From positions 32,001 to 96,000 of the forward strand of contig JBBRLI010000010.1 of NCBI GenBank assembly GCA_038231455.1: a stretch of DNA of 64,000 nt. Reading direction: 5' to 3'. The notes under the pieces were generated by a model that saw only the letters and a list, made by a program, of their open reading frames with translations, was not told where the DNA came from and searched no databases. The stretch is from Vulcanimicrobiales bacterium (GTDB taxonomy: Bacteria > Vulcanimicrobiota > Vulcanimicrobiia > Vulcanimicrobiales > Vulcanimicrobiaceae). Position numbers and translations under genes: made by a program. Positions 40,069 to 48,640 of this stretch are shown here, in pieces (position 1 is the first letter of the stretch; every line of letters starts with the position of its first letter).

Positions 40069-41172
40069 ATGGTTAGCGAACCAATTCTCCGTCGTACCGC
40101 GCTCTTCGACGCGCACCGCGCCCTCGGCGCGAAGATCGTGCCATTCGGCGGCTTCGAAATGCCCGTGCAATATGCCGGCATCCTCGCCGAACACGACGCC
40201 GTGCGCAATCGCGCGGGGCTCTTCGATCTCTCGCACATGGCGCAGTTCGAACTCCGTGGTGAAAACGTCGCTGCGTGGGCAGATTCGCTCACGGTCAACA
40301 ACGTCGCGACGATGAAGCCGCTGCAAGCGCGCTACAATATTTTCCCAAACGAACATGGTGGCGCGCACGACGACGTGATCTTCTATCGTTTGCCCGATCG
40401 CTGGTTGCTCGTCGTGAACGCCGGAAATGCCGACAAAATGTGGGCGCACATCAACGCCCATCGATCGGGCGACGTGAAGCTGACCAACTTTCACGGTGTC
40501 CGCGCGCTTATCGCGATTCAAGGCCCGCGCTCGGTTGAAATTTTGCAAGAATTTGTCGACATCGAGCTCGCGCCGATGAAATACTACACGTGTGCCGAGG
40601 CGACGATTGGCGGCGTGCGCGGCGTGATCGCGCGAACGGGTTATACGGGGGAAGACGGCTTCGAACTCTTCGTCGAGGGCGATGCCGCGACGGCACTTTG
40701 GGATGCAATCTTAGCTGCTGGTCGCGCGCACGGACTCGAACCCGCGGGCCTTGGGGCGCGCGACGTGCTGCGCCTGGAGGCGGGCATGCCGTTATACGGC
40801 CACGAGATGACCGAAGAAATCGGTCCGATTCAAGCGGGACTCGGCTGGGCAGTAAAACTCACAAAGCCCGCCTTTCGCGGCAAAGCCGCACTCGAGGCAC
40901 AATCGGCCGACGCGACGCTTCCGAAGATTGTTGGCATCGTGCTCGACGGCAAAATCCCGGCGCGTGCGGGATATCGCGTGGTTCACGATGGCATCGATGT
41001 CGGTGAGATTCGCAGCGGGTCGCTCGGTCCGTCGGTTGGAAAAAATATTGCGACGGGTCTGCTCGCACCGGGTGCTGCAACCATCGGCTCAAAAGTGAGC
41101 GTCGAGATTCGCGGGACACCTCACGACGCAACCGTCGTCGAACTACCGTTCTACAAACGCCCCAAAGTTTAA
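40069..41172 (+). CDS. gcvT: Glycine cleavage aminomethyltransferase
   Basis: FGGFEMPVQY, GLFDLSHM, RTGYTGEDGFE, GLGARDVLRLEAG. Confidence 0.97.
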   Translation: MVSEPILRRTALFDAHRALGAKIVPFGGFEMPVQYAGILAEHDAVRNRAGLFDLSHMAQFELRGENVAAWADSLTVNNVATMKPLQARYNIFPNEHGGAHDDVIFYRLPDRWLLVVNAGNADKMWAHINAHRSGDVKLTNFHGVRALIAIQGPRSVEILQEFVDIELAPMKYYTCAEATIGGVRGVIARTGYTGEDGFELFVEGDAATALWDAILAAGRAHGLEPAGLGARDVLRLEAGMPLYGHEMTEEIGPIQAGLGWAVKLTKPAFRGKAALEAQSADATLPKIVGIVLDGKIPARAGYRVVHDGIDVGEIRSGSLGPSVGKNIATGLLAPGAATIGSKVSVEIRGTPHDATVVELPFYKRPKV

Positions 41173-41184
41173 GGAGAGCACCAC

Positions 41185-41568
41185 GTGGCGCAGCCGGCCG
41201 GACTTCTGTACAGTAAAGAACACGAGTGGGTGAAGATGGACGGCGATGTCGCCACCGTCGGTATCACCGAATACGCGCAAAATTCGCTCGGCGATATCGT
41301 CTACGTGGAACTGCCGCGCATCGGCGCGGAACTCCAGCAATTCGGCAACATCGGCGTAATCGAATCCGTGAAAGCGGTCTCGGACATCTACACGCCCGTC
41401 GGCGGTGAAGTGGTCGAAGTCAACGCCGAACTCGAGGCCGATCCCGCGCTGGTCAACCGCGAACCATTCGGCACGGGCTGGCTCTTCAAAGTGAAGCTCG
41501 CCGATGTCACGCAGAATCAAAATCTGCTCTCACCCGAAAAATACGACGAACTCGTCGCCTCCGCTTAA
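41185..41568 (+). CDS. gcvH: Glycine cleavage H protein
   Basis: HEW, GITEYAQ..LGDIVYVELP, ESVKA (lipoyl Lys). Confidence 0.97.
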   Translation: MAQPAGLLYSKEHEWVKMDGDVATVGITEYAQNSLGDIVYVELPRIGAELQQFGNIGVIESVKAVSDIYTPVGGEVVEVNAELEADPALVNREPFGTGWLFKVKLADVTQNQNLLSPEKYDELVASA

Positions 41569-41903
41569 GGCTGGTCGGCGGGGTGGTTCACCCGCATCGT
41601 CGAGCCGAATAAATAGCCGCCGCGCGCGTGCGAAAACTGGATGATCTCCGGGTCGCCGATGCGCGTGCGCAGACGGTGGATCGAAACTTTGAGCGCGTTG
41701 ACGGCAACGCGCTCTTCGATTCCCGGGAGGACCATCGCGCCTAAATCGGCGGGCGCGATCGGCGCACCGTGGATCGCAAGCGATGCGATGATAGCAAAGT
41801 CGCGCTCGCTGATGGGTACGGGCCGGCCTTCCCGCGTTAGCTGGCCGACCGCAAGATCTAAATCGTAAACAACCCGCCGGCCCAGGCGATAGACTCCATC
41901 CAT
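41565..41903 (-). CDS. Stand-alone OmpR/PhoB-type winged-helix protein
   Basis: ISERDFAII, NALKVSIHRLRTRIG, RGGYLF; TATACT 9 nt before the ATG. Confidence 0.7.
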   Translation of the reverse strand: MDGVYRLGRRVVYDLDLAVGQLTREGRPVPISERDFAIIASLAIHGAPIAPADLGAMVLPGIEERVAVNALKVSIHRLRTRIGDPEIIQFSHARGGYLFGSTMRVNHPADQP

Positions 41904-42009
41904 GGCCGATGGAGTATAGCCCAGGCGGCCGCTTGCGTGAATAGGGATTTCCACCCATTGTTCGGGAACCTGAAACGGTTCCGCCCCAGCCGTCAGTCTA
42001 ACGAGGGTC

Positions 42010-43374
42010 ATGTACACACCGCACACGCAGCGCGACATCGAGGCGATGCTCCGCCTCATTGGCGCATCGTCGCTCGACGAGCTCGTCAAAGTCCCCGATG
42101 CCGTCGCCATCAAGGTTCCGCTCGAAGTCGCTCCGGCGCTTCCGGAGTCCGAACTCACCCAGCGTTTTGCGAGCTTCGCAGCGCGCGTCGGCGCGACGGA
42201 CTATATCTCGTTTCTTGGCGCGGGGGCGTACCGGCATTACGTGCCCCCGGTGATCGCGACGCTTGCGATGCGCGGCGAATTCCTCACCGCCTATACGCCA
42301 TACCAGGCGGAAGTCTCACAAGGCTATCTGCAGGCGATCTACGAGTGGCAGAGTTATATCGCGCTTCTCACCGGCATGGATGTCGCGAACGCCTCGGTGT
42401 ACGACGGAGCGACGGCGCTTGCCGAAGGCACGATCATGGCGGTGAATGCAACGGGTCGCAAAGCCGTCCTCGTCTCACGCGCCGTGCATCCCAACTATCG
42501 TGCCGTCCTTCAGACGTACGCCGATGGGCTCGATCTCGATGTCGACGAGCTGCCGTACGCCGCTGAGGGCACGACCGATCTTTCGTCGATCGAAGCCGCG
42601 CTTGCCGATCAGCGTTACGCCGCTGTCGTTCTTCAAACACCAAACATGTTCGGCGCGCTCGATGCACTGCCGAGCGGCATGGCCGAGAAGATCAAGGCAA
42701 CCGGAACGCTCGTCATCGGCGTGATTGCCGAAGCGCTTTCACTTGCCGCACTCGCAACGCCCGCATCATGGGGCGTCGATATTGCCGTTGGTGAAGGGCA
42801 GAGCTTCGGCGTGTCGCTGGCGTACGGAGGGCCGTATGTCGGCTTCATCGCCTGCACGACCGAACATTTGCGCCGCATCCCCGGACGCCTGGTTGGCAAG
42901 TCGCTCGACAAAGATGGCAACGAGGCGTACGTTCTCACGTTGCAAGCGCGCGAACAGCATATCCGCCGCGAAAAAGCGACCTCGAACATCTGCACCAATC
43001 AAGCCCACTGCGCGCTCGTCGCGACGATCTATCTTGCAGCGATGGGCAAGACCGGGTTGCGCAACTGCGCCTCGGCAAACCTCAAACGCTCGCGCGAACT
43101 CGAAAAAGCGGTCACCGCAATCGACGGGTTCACGAAGCGTTTCTCCGCTCCGTTTTTCAACGAATTCGCCGTTCGCGTGCCGGGCGGCAGTGCCGGTAGC
43201 GTCCTCAAGGCCCTGCAGAAACAGGGTATTCTGGGGGGCGTCGACCTCGGCCGCTGGTATCCCGAACTCGAAGACACGATCCTGATGACGGCGACGGAAG
43301 TCACCACGGATGCGGACATCAAGCAGCTCGTCGCTGCACTCCAGGAGGTTCGCAGTCTTGCCGGCGTTCGCTGA
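42010..43374 (+). CDS. gcvPA: Glycine dehydrogenase subunit 1
   Basis: FLGAGAY.HY, TAYTPYQAEVSQG, NASVYDG, REQHIRREKATSNICTNQ. Confidence 0.97.
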   Translation: MYTPHTQRDIEAMLRLIGASSLDELVKVPDAVAIKVPLEVAPALPESELTQRFASFAARVGATDYISFLGAGAYRHYVPPVIATLAMRGEFLTAYTPYQAEVSQGYLQAIYEWQSYIALLTGMDVANASVYDGATALAEGTIMAVNATGRKAVLVSRAVHPNYRAVLQTYADGLDLDVDELPYAAEGTTDLSSIEAALADQRYAAVVLQTPNMFGALDALPSGMAEKIKATGTLVIGVIAEALSLAALATPASWGVDIAVGEGQSFGVSLAYGGPYVGFIACTTEHLRRIPGRLVGKSLDKDGNEAYVLTLQAREQHIRREKATSNICTNQAHCALVATIYLAAMGKTGLRNCASANLKRSRELEKAVTAIDGFTKRFSAPFFNEFAVRVPGGSAGSVLKALQKQGILGGVDLGRWYPELEDTILMTATEVTTDADIKQLVAALQEVRSLAGVR

Positions 43375-44857
43375 AACCCCACTGATCTTCGACATCGGCC
43401 AAGACGGTCGGGCGAACAACTATTTTGCCGAAGGCGCGCCGCTCTCGGATTTTCTCCCCAAAGAGGCGCTCCGCGACGAACTACCGCTGCCGGATAATAG
43501 CGAACTCGACGTCGTGCGTCACTTCACGCGCCTTTCGCAAAAAACGTTCAGCATCGATACGAATTTCTATCCGCTGGGCTCGTGCACGATGAAGTACAAC
43601 CCGCGCGTCAACGACGCGATGGCGAATCTTCCGGCGCTGCGTGATTTGCATCCGCTCGTCCCCGACGAACTCGCGCAAGGAGCGCTCGCCGTCATGTGGG
43701 AGCTGGAGAAGAGCCTGGTCTCGCTCTTCGGCATGGCCGCATTCTCGCTCAACCCCGCCGCCGGCGCGCACGCCGAACTCACGGCGCTCCTCATCGCAAA
43801 GAAGTACTTTAAAAAGTACGGTCAGGCGTTGACGCGCACGACGGTGATCGTCCCGGACACCGCACACGGCACGAACCCCGCTTCCGCAGCGATGGTCGGC
43901 TTCAAAGTCGTTTCGCTCAAGTCCGATGCGCGCGGACGCGTCTCGGTCGAGGAAATCAAAAAAGCGATCGGCCCCGATACTGCCGTCGTCATGATGACGA
44001 ACCCGAACACCCTGGGCCTCTACGAAGATCAGATCAAAGAAATCACCGACGCGGTGCACGACGTCGGCGGCCTGATGTACTACGACGGAGCAAACGCAAA
44101 CGCGCTCATGGGCAACTCGCGCCCAGGCGACATGGGCTTCGACCTCATGCATCTCAATCTGCACAAAACGTTCTCGATTCCGCACGGCGGCGGCGGCGCG
44201 GGCGCAGGCCCCGTCGGCGTCGCGCGTCACCTCGTGCCGTTCTTACCGACCCCCGTCGTGCGCGCAACGAACATCGTAAGCGAACACGAAGGCTGGCGCC
44301 CAAGCGACGAGATGACCTTCGCACTCGACTTCAACCGCGAAGACTCCATCGGAACGATGCGCTCGTTCTGGTCCAATTTCGCGCACATGGTCCGGGCACT
44401 CTCATACACCTATGCAAACGGCGCCGAAGGCCTAACGATGGTGAGCAAACTCGCCATCCTTAACGCCAACTATATCCGCGCCTCAGTCAAAGACCTCATC
44501 GAAATCCCCTACGACGAATACAACCGCCACGAATTCGTAGCTAGCGCCCAAGCCTTAAAACGCGAAACGGGCGTACGCGCCCTCGACATCGGCAAAGCAC
44601 TCCTCGATCGCGGCTACCACGCCCCAACGGTGTACTTCCCGCTCCTCGTCCCCGAGTGCCTCATGATCGAACCAACGGAAACAGAATCAAAAGAAACACT
44701 CGATGGCTTCATCGCCGCCTTCCGAGAAATCCTAACAGCAGCCCGAGAAAACCCACAATCAATCATGGACGCGCCAATAAACACCGCAGTAAAACGAATC
44801 GACGAAACCCGAGCCGCCCGCCAACCCGACCTCCGGTGGCGACCAGCCCCAAAGTAG
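43358..44857 (+). CDS. gcvPB: Glycine dehydrogenase subunit 2
   Basis: SD AGGAGG + TTG; YPLGSCTMKYNP, HGTNPASA, HLNLHKTFS.PHGGGG, MIEPTETES. Confidence 0.97.
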   Translation: MPAFAETPLIFDIGQDGRANNYFAEGAPLSDFLPKEALRDELPLPDNSELDVVRHFTRLSQKTFSIDTNFYPLGSCTMKYNPRVNDAMANLPALRDLHPLVPDELAQGALAVMWELEKSLVSLFGMAAFSLNPAAGAHAELTALLIAKKYFKKYGQALTRTTVIVPDTAHGTNPASAAMVGFKVVSLKSDARGRVSVEEIKKAIGPDTAVVMMTNPNTLGLYEDQIKEITDAVHDVGGLMYYDGANANALMGNSRPGDMGFDLMHLNLHKTFSIPHGGGGAGAGPVGVARHLVPFLPTPVVRATNIVSEHEGWRPSDEMTFALDFNREDSIGTMRSFWSNFAHMVRALSYTYANGAEGLTMVSKLAILNANYIRASVKDLIEIPYDEYNRHEFVASAQALKRETGVRALDIGKALLDRGYHAPTVYFPLLVPECLMIEPTETESKETLDGFIAAFREILTAARENPQSIMDAPINTAVKRIDETRAARQPDLRWRPAPK

Positions 44858-44880
44858 TGGGCAAAAAACAAAACCGCATG

Positions 44881-44915
44881 AAAAAACGGAGTCGGGATCA
44901 CCGACTCCGTTTTTT
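44881..44915. terminator. Bidirectional intrinsic terminator
   Basis: AAAAAACGGAGTCGG-gatca-CCGACTCCGTTTTTT. Confidence 0.9.
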
Positions 44916-45080
44916 ATTTGCGAAACGAGTTCGCTTCAAAAACCGCTTTCAAGTCCGGCGGCAAGTCATCGATCTCCTGAACCTGCCGAACCTTATAAAT
45001 CCGTGTTCATCCCAAATCTCACCCGACATGAAAGCGTCGATCGAACAACACCAATTTCGACAACCCAACACCAATAGTTC
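44914..45080 (-). pseudogene. Remnant small gene with two in-frame TGA stops
   Basis: Reads ..LSKLVLFDRRFHVG*DLG*TRIYKVRQVQEIDDLPPDLKAVFEANSFRK*; the final stop lies at the terminator edge. 5' end undefined. Confidence 0.4.
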
Positions 45081-45140
45081 GCCACCACCCCCCCTCTCTA
45101 CAAAACCCCACCGAACCCAACGCCACCGTTGCGACCGAAA

Positions 45141-45331
45141 GTCGTGCCGGAGGGGCTGGTGGGGTGCGTTGCCGGTGGGGTCTATGAGCTTTTCGCGGAG
45201 CGTGTTGGCCCAGCGTAGGCTGGGACAACACATCAGGATGGCGGGAGCGAAAAGTCATGAAGCAGGGCTTTTCCAAGGACGGGAAAGCCCGGCGTCCCCA
45301 CCGGCAACCCGCCCCGCCAGCCACTCACGAC
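45141..45331 (+). repeat. Multi-stem inverted-repeat element (MITE-like or structured ncRNA)
   Basis: Perfect 13-bp arms 45168-80/45296-308, extended by 45154-64/45312-22 and 45141-46/45326-31; three internal stems. Confidence 0.7.
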
Positions 45332-45356
45332 ACAATCCCCGAACAAAACGAAGTGA

Positions 45357-45370
45357 CGAACAAACGTTCG
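45357..45370. promoter_or_regulatory. LexA-type SOS box
   Basis: CGAAC-AAAC-GTTCG matches the Gram-positive CGAAC-N4-GTTCG consensus. Confidence 0.7.
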
Positions 45371-45397
45371 ATGGGGTAGTTTCTTCTTGGCCCCCAT

Positions 45398-45406
45398 TGC
45401 TATAAT
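45398..45406 (+). promoter_or_regulatory. Extended -10 promoter
   Basis: TGCTATAAT upstream of the Nudix-scpAB run. Confidence 0.65.
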
Positions 45407-45449
45407 AAAAGGTACCCCCGAACCACGGGGAGCGCTCGGGAAAGCAACG

Positions 45450-45941
45450 ATGCGGATCAAATATGAGGTGTCTGCCGGAGGGCTAGTCCTCCGTCGGAAT
45501 GGAGCTCAGCTCGAGGCCCTGCTCATCGGCAGAGGCCAGCCTCGCGTATGGTCCTTGCCCAAAGGGCACGTCGAACATCGCGAGACCCACGAGCAAGCCG
45601 CCTTGCGCGAAGTCCGCGAAGAAACCGGCTGCTGGGCCGAGATCCTCATGAAGCTCTCGGATATCTCGTACTGGTTCTACCTGAACCGCAGCAAGCACAA
45701 AAAGTCGGTCCACTTCTATTTGATGCGCTATCTCTCAGGCGATACGGCCAACCACGACCACGAAGTCGATGAAGCCGCCTGGTTCGAGATCCGCGCGGCG
45801 AAGAAAAACCTCAAGTACGTCAACGAAAAGCGCCTGATCGACCTTGGCCTGGAGTATCTCCAAGCCGAAGGCACCGGTCTCTTCGAGACCGAGACCGTTG
45901 CGCTCGTTACTGAGGCTCTCCAGGACATCAGCGCAGGTTGA
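45450..45941 (+). CDS. Nudix hydrolase
   Basis: LPKGHVEHRETHEQAALREVREETG Nudix box. Confidence 0.93.
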   Translation: MRIKYEVSAGGLVLRRNGAQLEALLIGRGQPRVWSLPKGHVEHRETHEQAALREVREETGCWAEILMKLSDISYWFYLNRSKHKKSVHFYLMRYLSGDTANHDHEVDEAAWFEIRAAKKNLKYVNEKRLIDLGLEYLQAEGTGLFETETVALVTEALQDISAG

Positions 45942-46702
45942 ACCCGGGCGCCCCCGTCGAGGACGAGCGCGCCTGTCGTGTTTCGCTCGCCAATCTTTTT
46001 GATGGCCCACTCGATCTGCTCCTGAGTCTGGTTAAGGAACGCCAACTCGACATCGCGACGGTGCCGCTGGCGCTGGTCTGCGACCAATATTTTGCCTTCA
46101 TCGAGGCGATGGAGTCGATCGACGTCGAGCTTGCCGCCGAATATCTCGTGATCGCGGCCACCTTGGTGTTCCTCAAGTCAAAGGCGATGCTGCCGGCGAT
46201 TCCGGCCGAGTTCGAGGATGCCGAAGAGTCCGCCGAGGTGGTCGAGCAACGTCTGCGCGAGCGCCTAGTTGCCTACTCCATCTACAAGGCCGCGGGCGAT
46301 GAGCTCAAAAGCCGGGCCGATGAAGCCAAGGCCTTCTACCTGCGCGACGCCGGCGACCCGACAACAGACATCACCCAACGCTACCGCATCAATGCAGCGA
46401 AGCTCTCCGCGGCCCTGGCGGCTGCGTTGCGAGCGGCGAAGCCCGAGAAGCGCACCATCGTTCGCGAGCGCGTCTCGCTCATCGAGCAGATGGAGCTGGT
46501 CGCCCGCACGGTCCGTACCCAGGGCCGGGCGTCATTTTTCGAACTGTGCTTGGGCCTGGATCGCGGCGGGATCATCGTGACGTTCCTTGCTGTTTTGGAA
46601 CTGGTTCGGCGGCGCCGGCTGGTTTTCGCACAGAGTAACGCCTTCGCCGACATCGAACTCTTGCCGCTCGTGGAAGATCCGATACCCGCCAATGCAAACT
46701 GA
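45938..46702 (+). CDS. scpA: Segregation and condensation protein A
   Basis: FDGPLDLLL.L, AAEYLVIAATL..LKS..LP, IVTFLAVLEL. Confidence 0.95.
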   Translation: MNPGAPVEDERACRVSLANLFDGPLDLLLSLVKERQLDIATVPLALVCDQYFAFIEAMESIDVELAAEYLVIAATLVFLKSKAMLPAIPAEFEDAEESAEVVEQRLRERLVAYSIYKAAGDELKSRADEAKAFYLRDAGDPTTDITQRYRINAAKLSAALAAALRAAKPEKRTIVRERVSLIEQMELVARTVRTQGRASFFELCLGLDRGGIIVTFLAVLELVRRRRLVFAQSNAFADIELLPLVEDPIPANAN

Positions 46703-47402
46703 CGAGCTCGCTCCGCCGGCCGAGGCCGCCGCCGAGCACGAGCCCATGCAAACCGAACTGATCGAGACCGGGACGCTGCAGCGCAGCATCGAGGCGGTCC
46801 TTTTCGTCGCCTCCGAGGCGCTCTCGATCAAAACGCTCTCCAAACTCACCGGCGCGGAAGAAACCGAAGTCGCGCGGGCACTTCAGCAGATCGCTGAGGA
46901 CTTCGGCGATCGCGGCATCGTGCTGCGCGAGATCGCCGGCGGCTACCGCTTCGCGAGTTCCTCGGCCGCGCGCGAAGTCGTCGAAGCCTATCTCTTGCCG
47001 CCGAAGACCAATCTTTCGCCCGCGGCGCTCGAGACGCTCGCAATCGTTGCGTACATGCAACCCGTAACGAAGAGCGAAGTCGAAGGCGTACGCGGTGTCA
47101 GTGCGGATTCGGTGATCTCGACGCTCGTCGACCGGCGGTTTCTCGTTGAAGGCGGCCGCAAAGAAGTTGCGGGTCGTCCGATCCTCTACAAGACGACGGC
47201 CGAATTCTTGGAAGCCTTTGGCTTACGCAGTTTAGAAGAGTTGCCGCCAATCGACATCGATGCGGGTCTGCCGATCGAAATGGCGCTCCCGATTCCGACC
47301 GAAACGGTCGCGACCGCCATCGACGAAATCGTCGCCGATGAGATTGCAGAAGAAGCAAAATCAACCGAAGAGAGCGAGACAACGGAATCAACACCCACGT
47401 GA
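46692..47402 (+). CDS. scpB: Segregation and condensation protein B
   Basis: IEAVLF, LSPAALETLAIVAY.QPVT, GRPILYKTT..FL..FGL.SL.ELP. Confidence 0.96.
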   Translation: MQTDELAPPAEAAAEHEPMQTELIETGTLQRSIEAVLFVASEALSIKTLSKLTGAEETEVARALQQIAEDFGDRGIVLREIAGGYRFASSSAAREVVEAYLLPPKTNLSPAALETLAIVAYMQPVTKSEVEGVRGVSADSVISTLVDRRFLVEGGRKEVAGRPILYKTTAEFLEAFGLRSLEELPPIDIDAGLPIEMALPIPTETVATAIDEIVADEIAEEAKSTEESETTESTPT

Positions 47403-48640
47403 TGAACGACGATGACGCGATTTGGGATCGTATCGACGCGAACTGCCAAGCCGTTGCGATCGCGCACGAATTGATCCAGCCCGGTGAGACCTTCAGCCTT
47501 ACCGAAGACCAAGGAAAAGCGGTCGATGCGATCTGCGATGGTCTCGAAGACGGCGGCTTTGAATTCTTGCTTAAGGCACCGACAGGTTCGGGAAAAACCG
47601 AAGTCATGATGCGCGTTGCGGTCGATACGATTCTCGCAGAAGACTCGTACATCACGCTGATCGCGCCGACGCGCGACCTCGTGCGCCAGCACTTCACGTA
47701 CTTTACCGAACGCCTCGAAGGAACGGGACTCGGCGTTGCGCAGATTCATGGCGGCATTTCACCCGCCGAACGCAAAGCGACCATGGCGGGCCTCGCGGAC
47801 GGATCGATCCGCGTTGTGGTCGGCTCGGCGATGATGCTCGTGAGCGACCAGCTCTGGCGCATGATCGATGAGAGTTCTCTGCTGGTCGTCGACGACGTCA
47901 ACGCGTTCGACGAGCGCGAACATCTACGGTTACTGGAAGATCTCGACTGTCCGATGCTCTTCGCGACCGCGACGCCGGATGAGTTGCGCTCGTTTCTCAC
48001 GCGCGTCGGTGCTTACAATAACGTCATTTCGATGAAGAAAATGCCGTTCGATGTCATTCCGACCAAAGTGCACAAGGTCGAAGGTGTCTGGGGCGAACCG
48101 CCGATCGAGCAGATGTCGCGCGCGGACGAACTCATCCGCATGCACCTCGAGCGCAAGTCGCGCATCTTCGTCATCAGCCGCACGCGCCACGATGTGCCCA
48201 AGCTCGCGCAGCGGCTCGAAGAGACGTATGGATTTCCGGTTCAGCAATTGCGCGGCGATATGGCCGACACCGGCGAGCACAAGAGCCGCCACGCGCGTCG
48301 CGGAGTGAAAGTCAGCAACATCGGCACACGTGTTGAAATGATGGAAGCATTCCGTCGGGGGGCGCCCGCGATTCTCGCCGCGACCAATCTTGTCGGCAGC
48401 GGTCTCGACATTCCGGCAGCGGATCTCATCGTGATCACCGATGCCGACGCATTCGGTGAGGGCGAGACAGAACAACTCATCGGTCGCGTCGGTCGCCGCG
48501 AGCGCCCCTCCGATGCCATTCTTCTCACCGGGACCACCTTTGAGAAAAATCCCTCGCGGTCGCTCGCCAGCGGTCGCGCCAAGACATTTATGCCGCGCGG
48601 CATGCGTGCCAACCAGTTACGTTTCACGCGTCGCAAGTAA
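47399..48640 (+). CDS. Minimal SF2 helicase, RecG-like core
   Basis: LTEDQ, APTGSGKTEV, APTRDL..QH, ATNLVGSGLDIP, QLIGRVGRR; motif II reads DDVN. Confidence 0.8.
   Translation: MMNDDDAIWDRIDANCQAVAIAHELIQPGETFSLTEDQGKAVDAICDGLEDGGFEFLLKAPTGSGKTEVMMRVAVDTILAEDSYITLIAPTRDLVRQHFTYFTERLEGTGLGVAQIHGGISPAERKATMAGLADGSIRVVVGSAMMLVSDQLWRMIDESSLLVVDDVNAFDEREHLRLLEDLDCPMLFATATPDELRSFLTRVGAYNNVISMKKMPFDVIPTKVHKVEGVWGEPPIEQMSRADELIRMHLERKSRIFVISRTRHDVPKLAQRLEETYGFPVQQLRGDMADTGEHKSRHARRGVKVSNIGTRVEMMEAFRRGAPAILAATNLVGSGLDIPAADLIVITDADAFGEGETEQLIGRVGRRERPSDAILLTGTTFEKNPSRSLASGRAKTFMPRGMRANQLRFTRRK

Follow-up and report, generated by a model that had tools for sequence, protein, structure and literature searches.

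The window analyzed here, a 64,000-nt stretch of Vulcanimicrobiales bacterium contig JBBRLI010000010.1 (positions 32,001 to 96,000), contains the gene gcvPB, whose 3' end is strongly enriched in A and C, and directly beyond it a structured repeat element at 45142 to 45325 (folded strand, plus; nhmmer E value, 4.8e-34). Each of the 10 copies of this element in the genome, as well as each of the 7 copies with measurable flanks in a congener, is preceded on its 5' side by a gradient of 1 to 2 kb, within which G and T on the element's strand have given way to A and C, both at four-fold degenerate sites and in intergenic DNA. The bias follows the DNA strand that carries the folded element, whichever way the flanking gene reads, and it weakens where the element has been lost. 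Our tentative interpretation, to which we give slightly less than an even chance, is that the A/C bias at the gcvPB 3' end is what a substitution bias acting on DNA, unequal between the strands and anchored on the repeat, has left at this locus.

The genome under study, that of a soil bacterium (G000; 3.7 Mb in 106 contigs, 93.7% complete), was compared with that of the congener (G001), with a closed genome of another genus (G005) and with further relatives. Copies were oriented by the folded strand of the repeat, with the 5' side called upstream and the 3' side downstream. Orthologue sets and copy tallies include loci from four unpublished genomes (G009, G020, G022 and G036), and no conclusion hangs on these four. 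The genome null for A+C consisted of 73,633 windows of 300 nt (mean, 0.501; standard deviation, SD, 0.0365).

The gcvPB gene (43310 to 44857, plus strand) encodes subunit 2 of the glycine cleavage P-protein, with the Pfam domains GDC-P, Aminotran_5 and GcvP2_C. Its 3' two-thirds lie within the strand-specific A+C gradient, which covers coding and intergenic DNA from 43850 to 45141 and has a gradual 5' limit. In windows of 50 codons, third-position A+C was 0.44 to 0.58 at 43310 to 43834, approximately 0.70 at 43985 to 44284 and 0.84 to 0.90 at 44435 to 44809, a smooth climb with no sharp boundary. The third base of the 152 codons at 44399 to 44854 was C in 81, A in 50, G in 15 and T in 6 (A+C, 0.86), and the 343 codons at 43370 to 44398 had a third-position A+C of 0.61. 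A preliminary description of the window, made from the sequence alone, had counted 31 A, 24 C, 6 G and 1 T at the third position of the last 62 sense codons (44669 to 44854). This count was reproduced exactly, and the codons in this segment include CCA and CGA five times each, ACA three times, TCA twice and CTA, GTA and ATA once each. The accompanying statements, that A/C-rich intergenic DNA extends up to the element and that the Nudix gene on the other side is unbiased, were also borne out. The 283 intergenic nucleotides at 44858 to 45140 comprise 96 C, 89 A, 52 T and 46 G (A+C, 0.65), and the Nudix hydrolase gene (45451 to 45941, plus strand; Pfam NUDIX) has a third-position A+C of 0.47 over its 163 codons (45451 to 45939). 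The bias ends between the element and this gene, in an A+C-rich stretch of approximately 100 nt (45326 to 45425, plus strand) whose first 100-nt bin is 62% A+C in the window copy.

In 200-nt windows, GC skew was -0.18 to -0.41 and AT skew +0.09 to +0.51 throughout 44300 to 45199, and GC skew was within +/-0.13 in the remainder of 41000 to 48000. The GC content drops from approximately 0.65 to approximately 0.54 in the skewed stretch. The skew runs across a perfect 15-bp inverted repeat (44881 to 44915; 100% complementary) with an A-run before it and a T-run after it, which resembles a two-way terminator directly after gcvPB. The bias is real and far above chance: the patch in the window (C10:76301-77150) peaks at an A+C of 0.673; of 87 outlier patches genome-wide, it ranks in the strongest 7. 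For the window copy, A+C relative to genome windows was 0.629 (z, 4.9) in the 1000 nt directly upstream and 0.664 (z, 5.2) in the nearest 500 nt.

The skewed part of gcvPB encodes the conserved GcvP2_C domain (residues 379 to 482), and the protein is 97 to 98% identical to that of the congener, indicating that the shift is mostly synonymous. The preliminary description had called it synonymous outright, and this needs a slight correction. The last 150 amino acids contain 19 Gly, Val, Trp, Phe or Cys residues, compared with 26.5 +/- 2.7 in 28 other orthologues, indicating that a small part of the pressure reaches the protein.

The same gradient was found at all copies in the genome. Averaged over the 10 copies in 100-nt bins, A+C was 50% at -3 kb, 55% at approximately -1.7 kb, 60% at approximately -800 nt and 65% and 64% in the last 200 nt. 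On the 3' side, it was 62% in the first 100 nt and then 54 to 50%, with means of 0.548 over 500 nt and 0.519 over 1000 nt. The upstream 500 nt of the individual copies had A+C values of 0.664, 0.588, 0.546, 0.672, 0.618, 0.636, 0.642, 0.638, 0.566 and 0.608 (null SD, 0.032). All 10 values exceed 0.5; eight are in the top 0.5% of genome windows, and the other two are at 0.02 and 0.07. The skew peaks thus sit on a fixed side of the element, the 5' side, at 10 of 10 copies, which was the outcome looked for in the preliminary description. Background G+T within +/-40 kb of the copies was 0.484 to 0.512. The replication skew of the genome, as absolute GC skew, is at most 0.05 per 20 kb, which is too weak to assign a fork direction to the 10 copies, and the local effect is roughly ten times larger. 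A control with tRNA genes (39 of the 46 had enough flank) gave no upstream skew, with means of 48 to 50%. The strongest element-free outlier patches inspected were low-complexity coding sequences (Lys-rich, Pro/Thr-rich, Asn/Gln-rich or the start of tuf) or blocks of 300 to 600 nt without a gradient. Very Lys/Ala-rich repetitive proteins with AKKxx repeats account for some of the strongest of these patches (C8:115951-116475, C1:147151-147700 and C1:316276-317325).

The direction in which the flanking gene is read makes no difference to the bias. Five of the flanking genes share the orientation of the element and are called co-oriented (gcvPB, dnaA, a Vgb-lyase-family gene, ogt and pdxT) and five are opposed to it (a beta-lactamase-family gene, dnaX, gatCAB, thiC and a crtC-like gene). 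The sense strand is A+C-rich in the five co-oriented genes and G+T-rich in the five opposed ones. Four-fold sites were read on the element's strand in bins of 0 to 400, 400 to 800, 800 to 1200, 1200 to 1600, 1600 to 2400 and 2400 to 4000 nt from the element. In these six bins, A+C was 0.72, 0.72, 0.63, 0.57, 0.56 and 0.52 for co-oriented genes and 0.81, 0.79, 0.69, 0.67, 0.67 and 0.58 for opposed genes, with a background of 0.52 on the sense strand and 0.48 on the antisense strand. The background composition at four-fold sites is 0.11 A, 0.41 C, 0.36 G and 0.12 T; near the element, A is approximately 0.30, G 0.16 to 0.20 and T 0.04 to 0.08. The decay of A+C with distance in both gene classes excludes codon preference and selection on the flanking mRNAs as the cause. 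A process acting on one strand and in one direction from the element, as had been suggested beforehand, fits these results, in that the bias tracks the DNA strand and not gene sense.

The element itself consists of a long basal stem (P1) and two hairpins (P2 and P3). A profile search detected 10 copies of 160 to 190 nt in the genome, and a covariance model recovered the same 10. The window copy matches the covariance model at 45159 to 45318 with 118.7 bits, and its minimum free energy is -126.6 kcal/mol (z, -8.7). The sequence of P1 varies from copy to copy, and the P3 loop reads A(A/U)GGAUG. Alifold predicted 60 pairs, 38 of them with a compensatory change. In 80 distinct copies from 25 genomes, 96.0% of 4036 cells were paired, compared with 67.9% in shuffles and 37 to 51% in slid controls; this alignment was fitted to the covariance model and hence leans towards structure. 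Double changes occurred at 50 of the 51 pairs, and none of 500 shuffles reached the observed value on any of five measures. Among element pairs, G-U plus U-G combinations (153) far outnumber A-C plus C-A combinations (30), indicating that the plus strand is the folding strand. By these tests, the repeat is a structured RNA (or single-strand) element under selection for its fold. In a search of Rfam 15, no family matched at its gathering score; the best hits, MIR1858 (27.3 bits; gathering score, 137) and AaHKsRNA41 (21.8 bits; gathering score, 97), were at chance level. Of 41 related genomes, 25 carry the family, at 1 to 52 copies per genome, and a pattern scan that covered every species genome found matches almost exclusively in metagenome-assembled genomes labelled Eremiobacterota or Vulcanimicrobiota. 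The element is an undescribed structured repeat or RNA family of Eremiobacterota.

Comparison with relatives links the bias to the presence of the element. The third-position A+C of the last 150 codons of gcvPB was 0.86 here, 0.72 in the congener and 0.52 +/- 0.04 (range, 0.42 to 0.61) in 28 orthologues from other genera, none of which has the element nearby. Relatives without the element thus lack the 3' bias, in keeping with the element-linked process put forward in the preliminary description. At gatA, third-position G+T of the sense strand by thirds of the gene was 0.85/0.72/0.78 here, 0.77/0.71/0.76 in the congener and 0.50/0.48/0.51 +/- 0.04 to 0.05 in 28 orthologues, also from other genera. 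Six of the eight copies in the congener are orthologous to copies here, indicating that the copies are old.

Three loci are discordant between the two genomes, and in all three the near-zone skew is weaker in the genome without the intact element. At gcvPB, the congener has kept only the 3' part of the element, with approximately 1 kb of other DNA in place of the rest, and the region 45340 to 45450 is nearly identical. At gatCAB, the congener has a clean internal deletion of approximately 155 nt of the element (L265 ~1100 versus L264:944-1107), and G+T at the third positions of the first 160 codons of gatA is 0.77 where the element is lost and 0.85 where it is kept. At the locus after carB, the congener has the element and G000 has 1.3 kb of other DNA in its place; A+C over the last 700 nt is 47 to 58% without the element and 50 to 64% with it. 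The replacement DNA at the gcvPB locus of the congener and that at the C5 locus of G000 are unrelated to each other. Site differences point the same way. In gcvPB, 46 sites have G or T in the congener and A or C here, compared with 17 in the reverse direction, and in the carB-side near zone, 88 differences have A or C in the holder of the element, compared with 30 in the reverse direction (far zone, 97 versus 132). The gatCAB deletion in the congener leaves approximately 17 nt of the 3' arm of the element together with a conserved upstream motif and could be an excision footprint.

The rate of substitution was not raised near the element. Four-fold divergence between G000 and the congener, measured at six shared loci, was 0.354 at 0 to 500 nt (384 sites), 0.357 at 500 to 1000 nt, 0.341 at 1000 to 1600 nt and 0.339 at 1600 to 3000 nt (443 sites). 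This indicates that the force alters the direction of substitution and not its rate, and that it is not hypermutation; the local mutagenesis proposed in the preliminary description is therefore not upheld in the sense of a raised rate. Divergence between the G/T and A/C classes was 0.232 in the nearest bin, compared with 0.261 to 0.285 in the three farther bins (0.262 at 1600 to 3000 nt), and divergence within classes was 0.122 near the element, compared with 0.072 to 0.080 farther away. A raised divergence was detected only where one genome had lost the element (0.197 versus 0.113 over all sites). By our own arithmetic, in a two-state model set to 74% A+C, the flux between classes should be approximately 1.5 times the background if one strand suffers extra damage and the reverse rate stays as it was, approximately 0.84 times under a fixation bias and approximately 0.77 times under a paired rise and fall; the observed ratio near the element was 0.89.

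At two discordant loci, with the element-bearing genome taken as derived, the changes were G>A (44), T>C (45), G>C (38) and C>A (42), and the reverse changes were A>G (10), C>T (16), C>G (16) and A>C (16). The G>A and T>C signature that had been read as deamination of an exposed strand was found, with both changes enriched, and it was accompanied by G>C and C>A changes that were equally common. No flanking-base motif was found among the substitutions at these two loci (the base 3' of G>A changes was A in 16 of 44 cases, with a baseline of 28%), and a deaminase-like sequence context was absent. On the complementary strand, the changes read C>T, A>G, C>G and G>T, the set expected from copying of a damaged, partly single-stranded template and not that of pure deamination.

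A substitution bias anchored on the repeat could arise if the element makes the two DNA strands unequal on its 5' side. Premutational changes on the complementary strand (C>T, C>G, G>T and A>G there) would then tend to fixation, and those on the element's strand would be erased. The simplest route may be that a discontinuity at the hairpin is the starting point for repeated removal and resynthesis of the element's strand, or for repair targeted to that strand; for this process we infer an excision or exposure step. The complementary strand would be the sole template and partly single-stranded, and a distribution of tract lengths of up to 1 to 2 kb would yield the gradient. The trigger could be a hairpin that forms on one template strand during replication, a nick specific to the structure or the binding of a factor. 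The overall rate is not raised, and the process would therefore redirect substitutions rather than add many. At about the neutral rate, strong skew is expected only at old, fixed copies, such as those of this genus, and a few percent at young ones. The 52 copies of G005 are nearly identical, indicating a recent burst, and A+C in the last 300 nt averages 52 to 55% there (40 of 41 profile hits, of which 2 are partial tandem copies; 1 hit with a short flank was omitted). A more specific version, that the repeat is the cis-acting site of an undescribed oriented bacterial DNA transaction which rewrites the adjacent 1 to 2 kb on one strand, is improbable on present evidence; a hairpin-directed nick with long-patch resynthesis, a recruited editing or repair factor and a D-loop-like one-way priming site would be the candidates.

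Several observations weigh against a substitution bias of this kind. The effect outside the genus is small and uneven: A+C averaged 57% in the last 200 nt at 19 loci of other genomes, and pattern-scan copies from other genera had 0.542 in the upstream 500 nt and 0.502 downstream (20 usable of 82 matches), only 5 of these 20 reaching 0.58 upstream. In G005, upstream A+C over 600 nt was 0.530 for 21 head-on copies and 0.510 for 18 codirectional copies, indicating little dependence on the replication fork (orientation was assigned by hand arithmetic from dnaA at 2.04 Mb, and the two partial tandem copies were dropped). The copy beside dnaA is weak in this genome (upstream 500 nt, z of 1.5), and third-position A+C of the last 100 codons of dnaA was 0.57 here, 0.69 in the congener and 0.53 +/- 0.05 in 28 orthologues. 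The polarity of the changes is an assumption, a close outgroup being absent. G>C and C>A were as frequent as the deamination-type transitions, so that simple deamination is insufficient. The flat rate is equally expected from weak selection on composition (approximately 0.84 times predicted, 0.89 times observed). Finally, the nick, gap, single-stranded DNA or enzyme that such a bias would call for is hypothetical.

The copy beside dnaA, in the dnaA-dnaN spacer (L002:2776-2934, corresponding to C4:199775-199933), adjoins DnaA-box-like words, and dnaN directly 3' of it has a sense third-position A+C of only 0.29. An element beside dnaA was found in this genus only (2 of 30 dnaA loci).

Weak selection on composition, by which the 1 to 2 kb 5' of the element would be kept poor in G and T for the function of the element, with little selection on each site, would also produce a gradient without a raised rate. 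Possible functions are a precursor RNA that must stay unstructured and G-poor, loading of Rho to insulate the element, or a property of the DNA. Four-fold sites do not diverge faster near the element, and exchanges between the G/T and A/C classes are even slightly reduced there, which a fixation bias would lead one to expect. Enrichment extends to transversions and covers all four classes of change by which A increases or G/T decreases, and the element is a conserved, RNA-like fold. The P3 loop, conserved across copies, moreover resembles a CsrA binding site, a candidate match only; a CsrA gene (PF02599) is present in 5 of 5 genomes checked, including one (G007) in which the element was not found. 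However, the bias is independent of orientation, so that half of the cases would need an antisense RNA starting more than 1 kb away, and its smooth decay beyond 2 kb is unlike that of a functional module. The 52 young copies in G005 lack the bias, and the element hence does not need it. A C-rich upstream RNA would probably compete with the G-rich 5' arm of the element, amino acid changes in conserved enzymes would be a cost, and a plausible function is lacking. Selection on composition is therefore rather unlikely in our estimation.

Transcription is a somewhat weaker contender. A promoter at the 5' edge of the element would fire away from it, and the complementary strand, as the non-template strand, displaced by R-loops and outside transcription-coupled repair, would turn G+T-rich. 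The geometry and sign fit, the G+T-rich strand being the one that would be non-template, and beside 5 of the 10 copies a gene that starts 63 to 135 nt from the element's 5' edge is read in the outward direction. An asymmetry of rises and falls with no net rise in rate fits the flat four-fold divergence, and a GC skew that declines over approximately 1 kb from the start site is the R-loop pattern at eukaryotic promoters. The other five copies, however, have a gene running towards the element and would require an unseen antisense RNA. In the window, this RNA would meet the terminator-like hairpin at 44881 to 44915, and the strongest skew lies beyond this hairpin as seen by RNA leaving the element. 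A scan of 44300 to 45600 gave no sigma-70-like promoter on either strand (0 sites). A putative sigma-54-like reading of the reverse strand at the 5' end of the element varies between copies. The highly expressed tuf gene has an A+C-rich and not a G+T-rich sense strand, tRNA genes show no effect, and the amplitude is far above that of any transcription skew known to us. Transcription as the source of the asymmetry is thus quite improbable. The possibility that recombination brought in the gcvPB 3' end from a foreign source, that this end was misassembled or that it reflects codon usage particular to the gene, part of which the preliminary description had listed against its own proposal, draws on the local change in composition (the drop in GC content given above) and on nothing further. 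The segment 43585 to 45214 is bridged with 0 differences by an independent contig of the sole public DNA run that contains the stretch (a run that may be the source sample), indicating that the skew boundary is not an assembly joint. Together with the smooth gradient, the intermediate bias of the same gene in the same place beside an element remnant in the congener, the same pattern at 9 other loci and the 28 unbiased orthologues, this excludes all three variants, which we regard as scarcely credible.

Substitution that differs between the strands has been described for whole replichores, for transcription units and for mitochondrial genomes. The closest analogue of the gradients described here appears to be that of vertebrate mitochondrial DNA, in which the H strand is single-stranded during strand-displacement replication and the skew is measured from the stem-loop origin OL. 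In both cases, one strand is A+C-rich at four-fold sites regardless of gene sense, the bias is graded by distance from a stem-loop, as the monotonic decay in both gene classes demonstrates for the repeat, and damage that the complementary strand suffers in its single-stranded state is the proposed cause. The repeat flanks differ in that the gradient spans 1 to 2 kb at 10 sites of a bacterial chromosome, is anchored on a 160- to 190-nt repeat and shows no sign of a replication start; furthermore, substitution is not accelerated, and G>C and C>A changes contribute. Replication skew, by which the leading strand of bacteria is G+T-rich, likewise sets keto against amino bases at neutral sites, regardless of how genes are oriented and with no need for a higher rate, but it spans replichores and switches at the origin and terminus. 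It is ruled out by the 1- to 2-kb extent and by the weak genome skew (local GC skew to -0.41 versus at most 0.05), and orientation relative to dnaA made little difference in G005. Transcription and R-loop asymmetry is known from deamination of the non-template strand, GC skew after promoters and AID-targeted switch regions. It shares the kilobase scale, the one-sided extension from a fixed point and the G+T enrichment of the displaced strand, but the skew described here does not follow annotated genes: a skew following the sense strand of the flanking gene was not found, five genes being co-oriented and five opposed.

Among repeats, REP, BIME, REPIN and MITE-like elements are also intergenic, multicopy (1 to 52 copies per genome for the present family) and hairpin-forming; they too multiply in bursts of nearly identical copies and are lost cleanly through deletions. 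The element differs from REP-type repeats in being much longer and in its three-helix fold with RNA-type covariation and G-U bias. Membership of the REP/REPIN class was rejected, as no cognate RAYT or IS200-type Y1 transposase (an HUH nuclease; PF01797) was found in any of five genomes (G000, G001, G003, G005 and G017); controls matched in 6 of 14. To our knowledge, no REP- or MITE-like repeat biases its flanks. Diversity-generating retroelements also change the 3' end of a gene directionally beside a hairpin, but the changes here lack adenine specificity, are synonymous and occur on either side of genes. This class was rejected as well. Reverse transcriptase (PF00078) gave no match in G000, was absent from G001, G005, G017 and G019 and had one match in G003, and a template/variable repeat is absent: a search for a repeat pair of approximately 100 nt yielded only direct repeats of 10 to 14 nt in 44800 to 45500, and a blastn search of 44860 to 45420 against the genome found only other copies of the element. 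A local hypermutation system was rejected on the flat divergence given above.

We know of no other kilobase-scale gradient on an interspersed bacterial repeat that is independent of gene orientation and approximately ten times the genome replication skew, and a non-exhaustive keyword search of the literature returned nothing on the repeat or on local skew beside repeats. The results suggest that a repeat can direct mutation in the DNA around it. Under a mutational cause, each genome offers 10 natural replicates that report on a strand-specific DNA process and that have been gained and lost among relatives, and small repeats alter the codon usage and slightly the amino acid content of core genes such as gcvPB, gatCAB, thiC and dnaX. 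Scans for codon usage, horizontal transfer or selection would misread such tracts. If an oriented DNA transaction is involved, mobile repeats would reshape the codon usage, and slowly the protein sequence, of adjacent housekeeping genes. If the cause is selection, the gradients would reveal a hitherto unknown long-range requirement of a new Eremiobacterota RNA family.

Searches around the element gave few associated features. An all-against-all comparison of open reading frames at 46 loci yielded no recurrent neighbour protein, only reading frames overlapping the element itself, and half-element profiles found no further remnants in the genome. An intergenic A+C-rich patch of G000 (C7:109276-109800), which these profiles did not score, contains three tandem units ending ...CAACCGGCAAGCCAC that resemble the 3' end of the outer stem of the element. 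In G005, copies often occur in facing pairs approximately 270 nt apart and once in a partial tandem array (loci L046, L042, L048 and L052). A purine-rich conserved word, AAACGGCTAAGAAGAAG or a close variant, is located 25 to 45 nt 5' of the copies on C11, C9, C3, C10b and C4a and could be part of a promoter or a further piece of the element. The tip of P2 in the window copy contains an inserted 30-nt mini-hairpin (45202 to 45231, plus strand), which is carried by 3 of the 10 copies. A pattern search for this mini-hairpin found four sites in the genome, three of them inside elements (on C10, C4 and C11) and one alone, at C8:115954-115983, after a Lys-rich histone-like gene.

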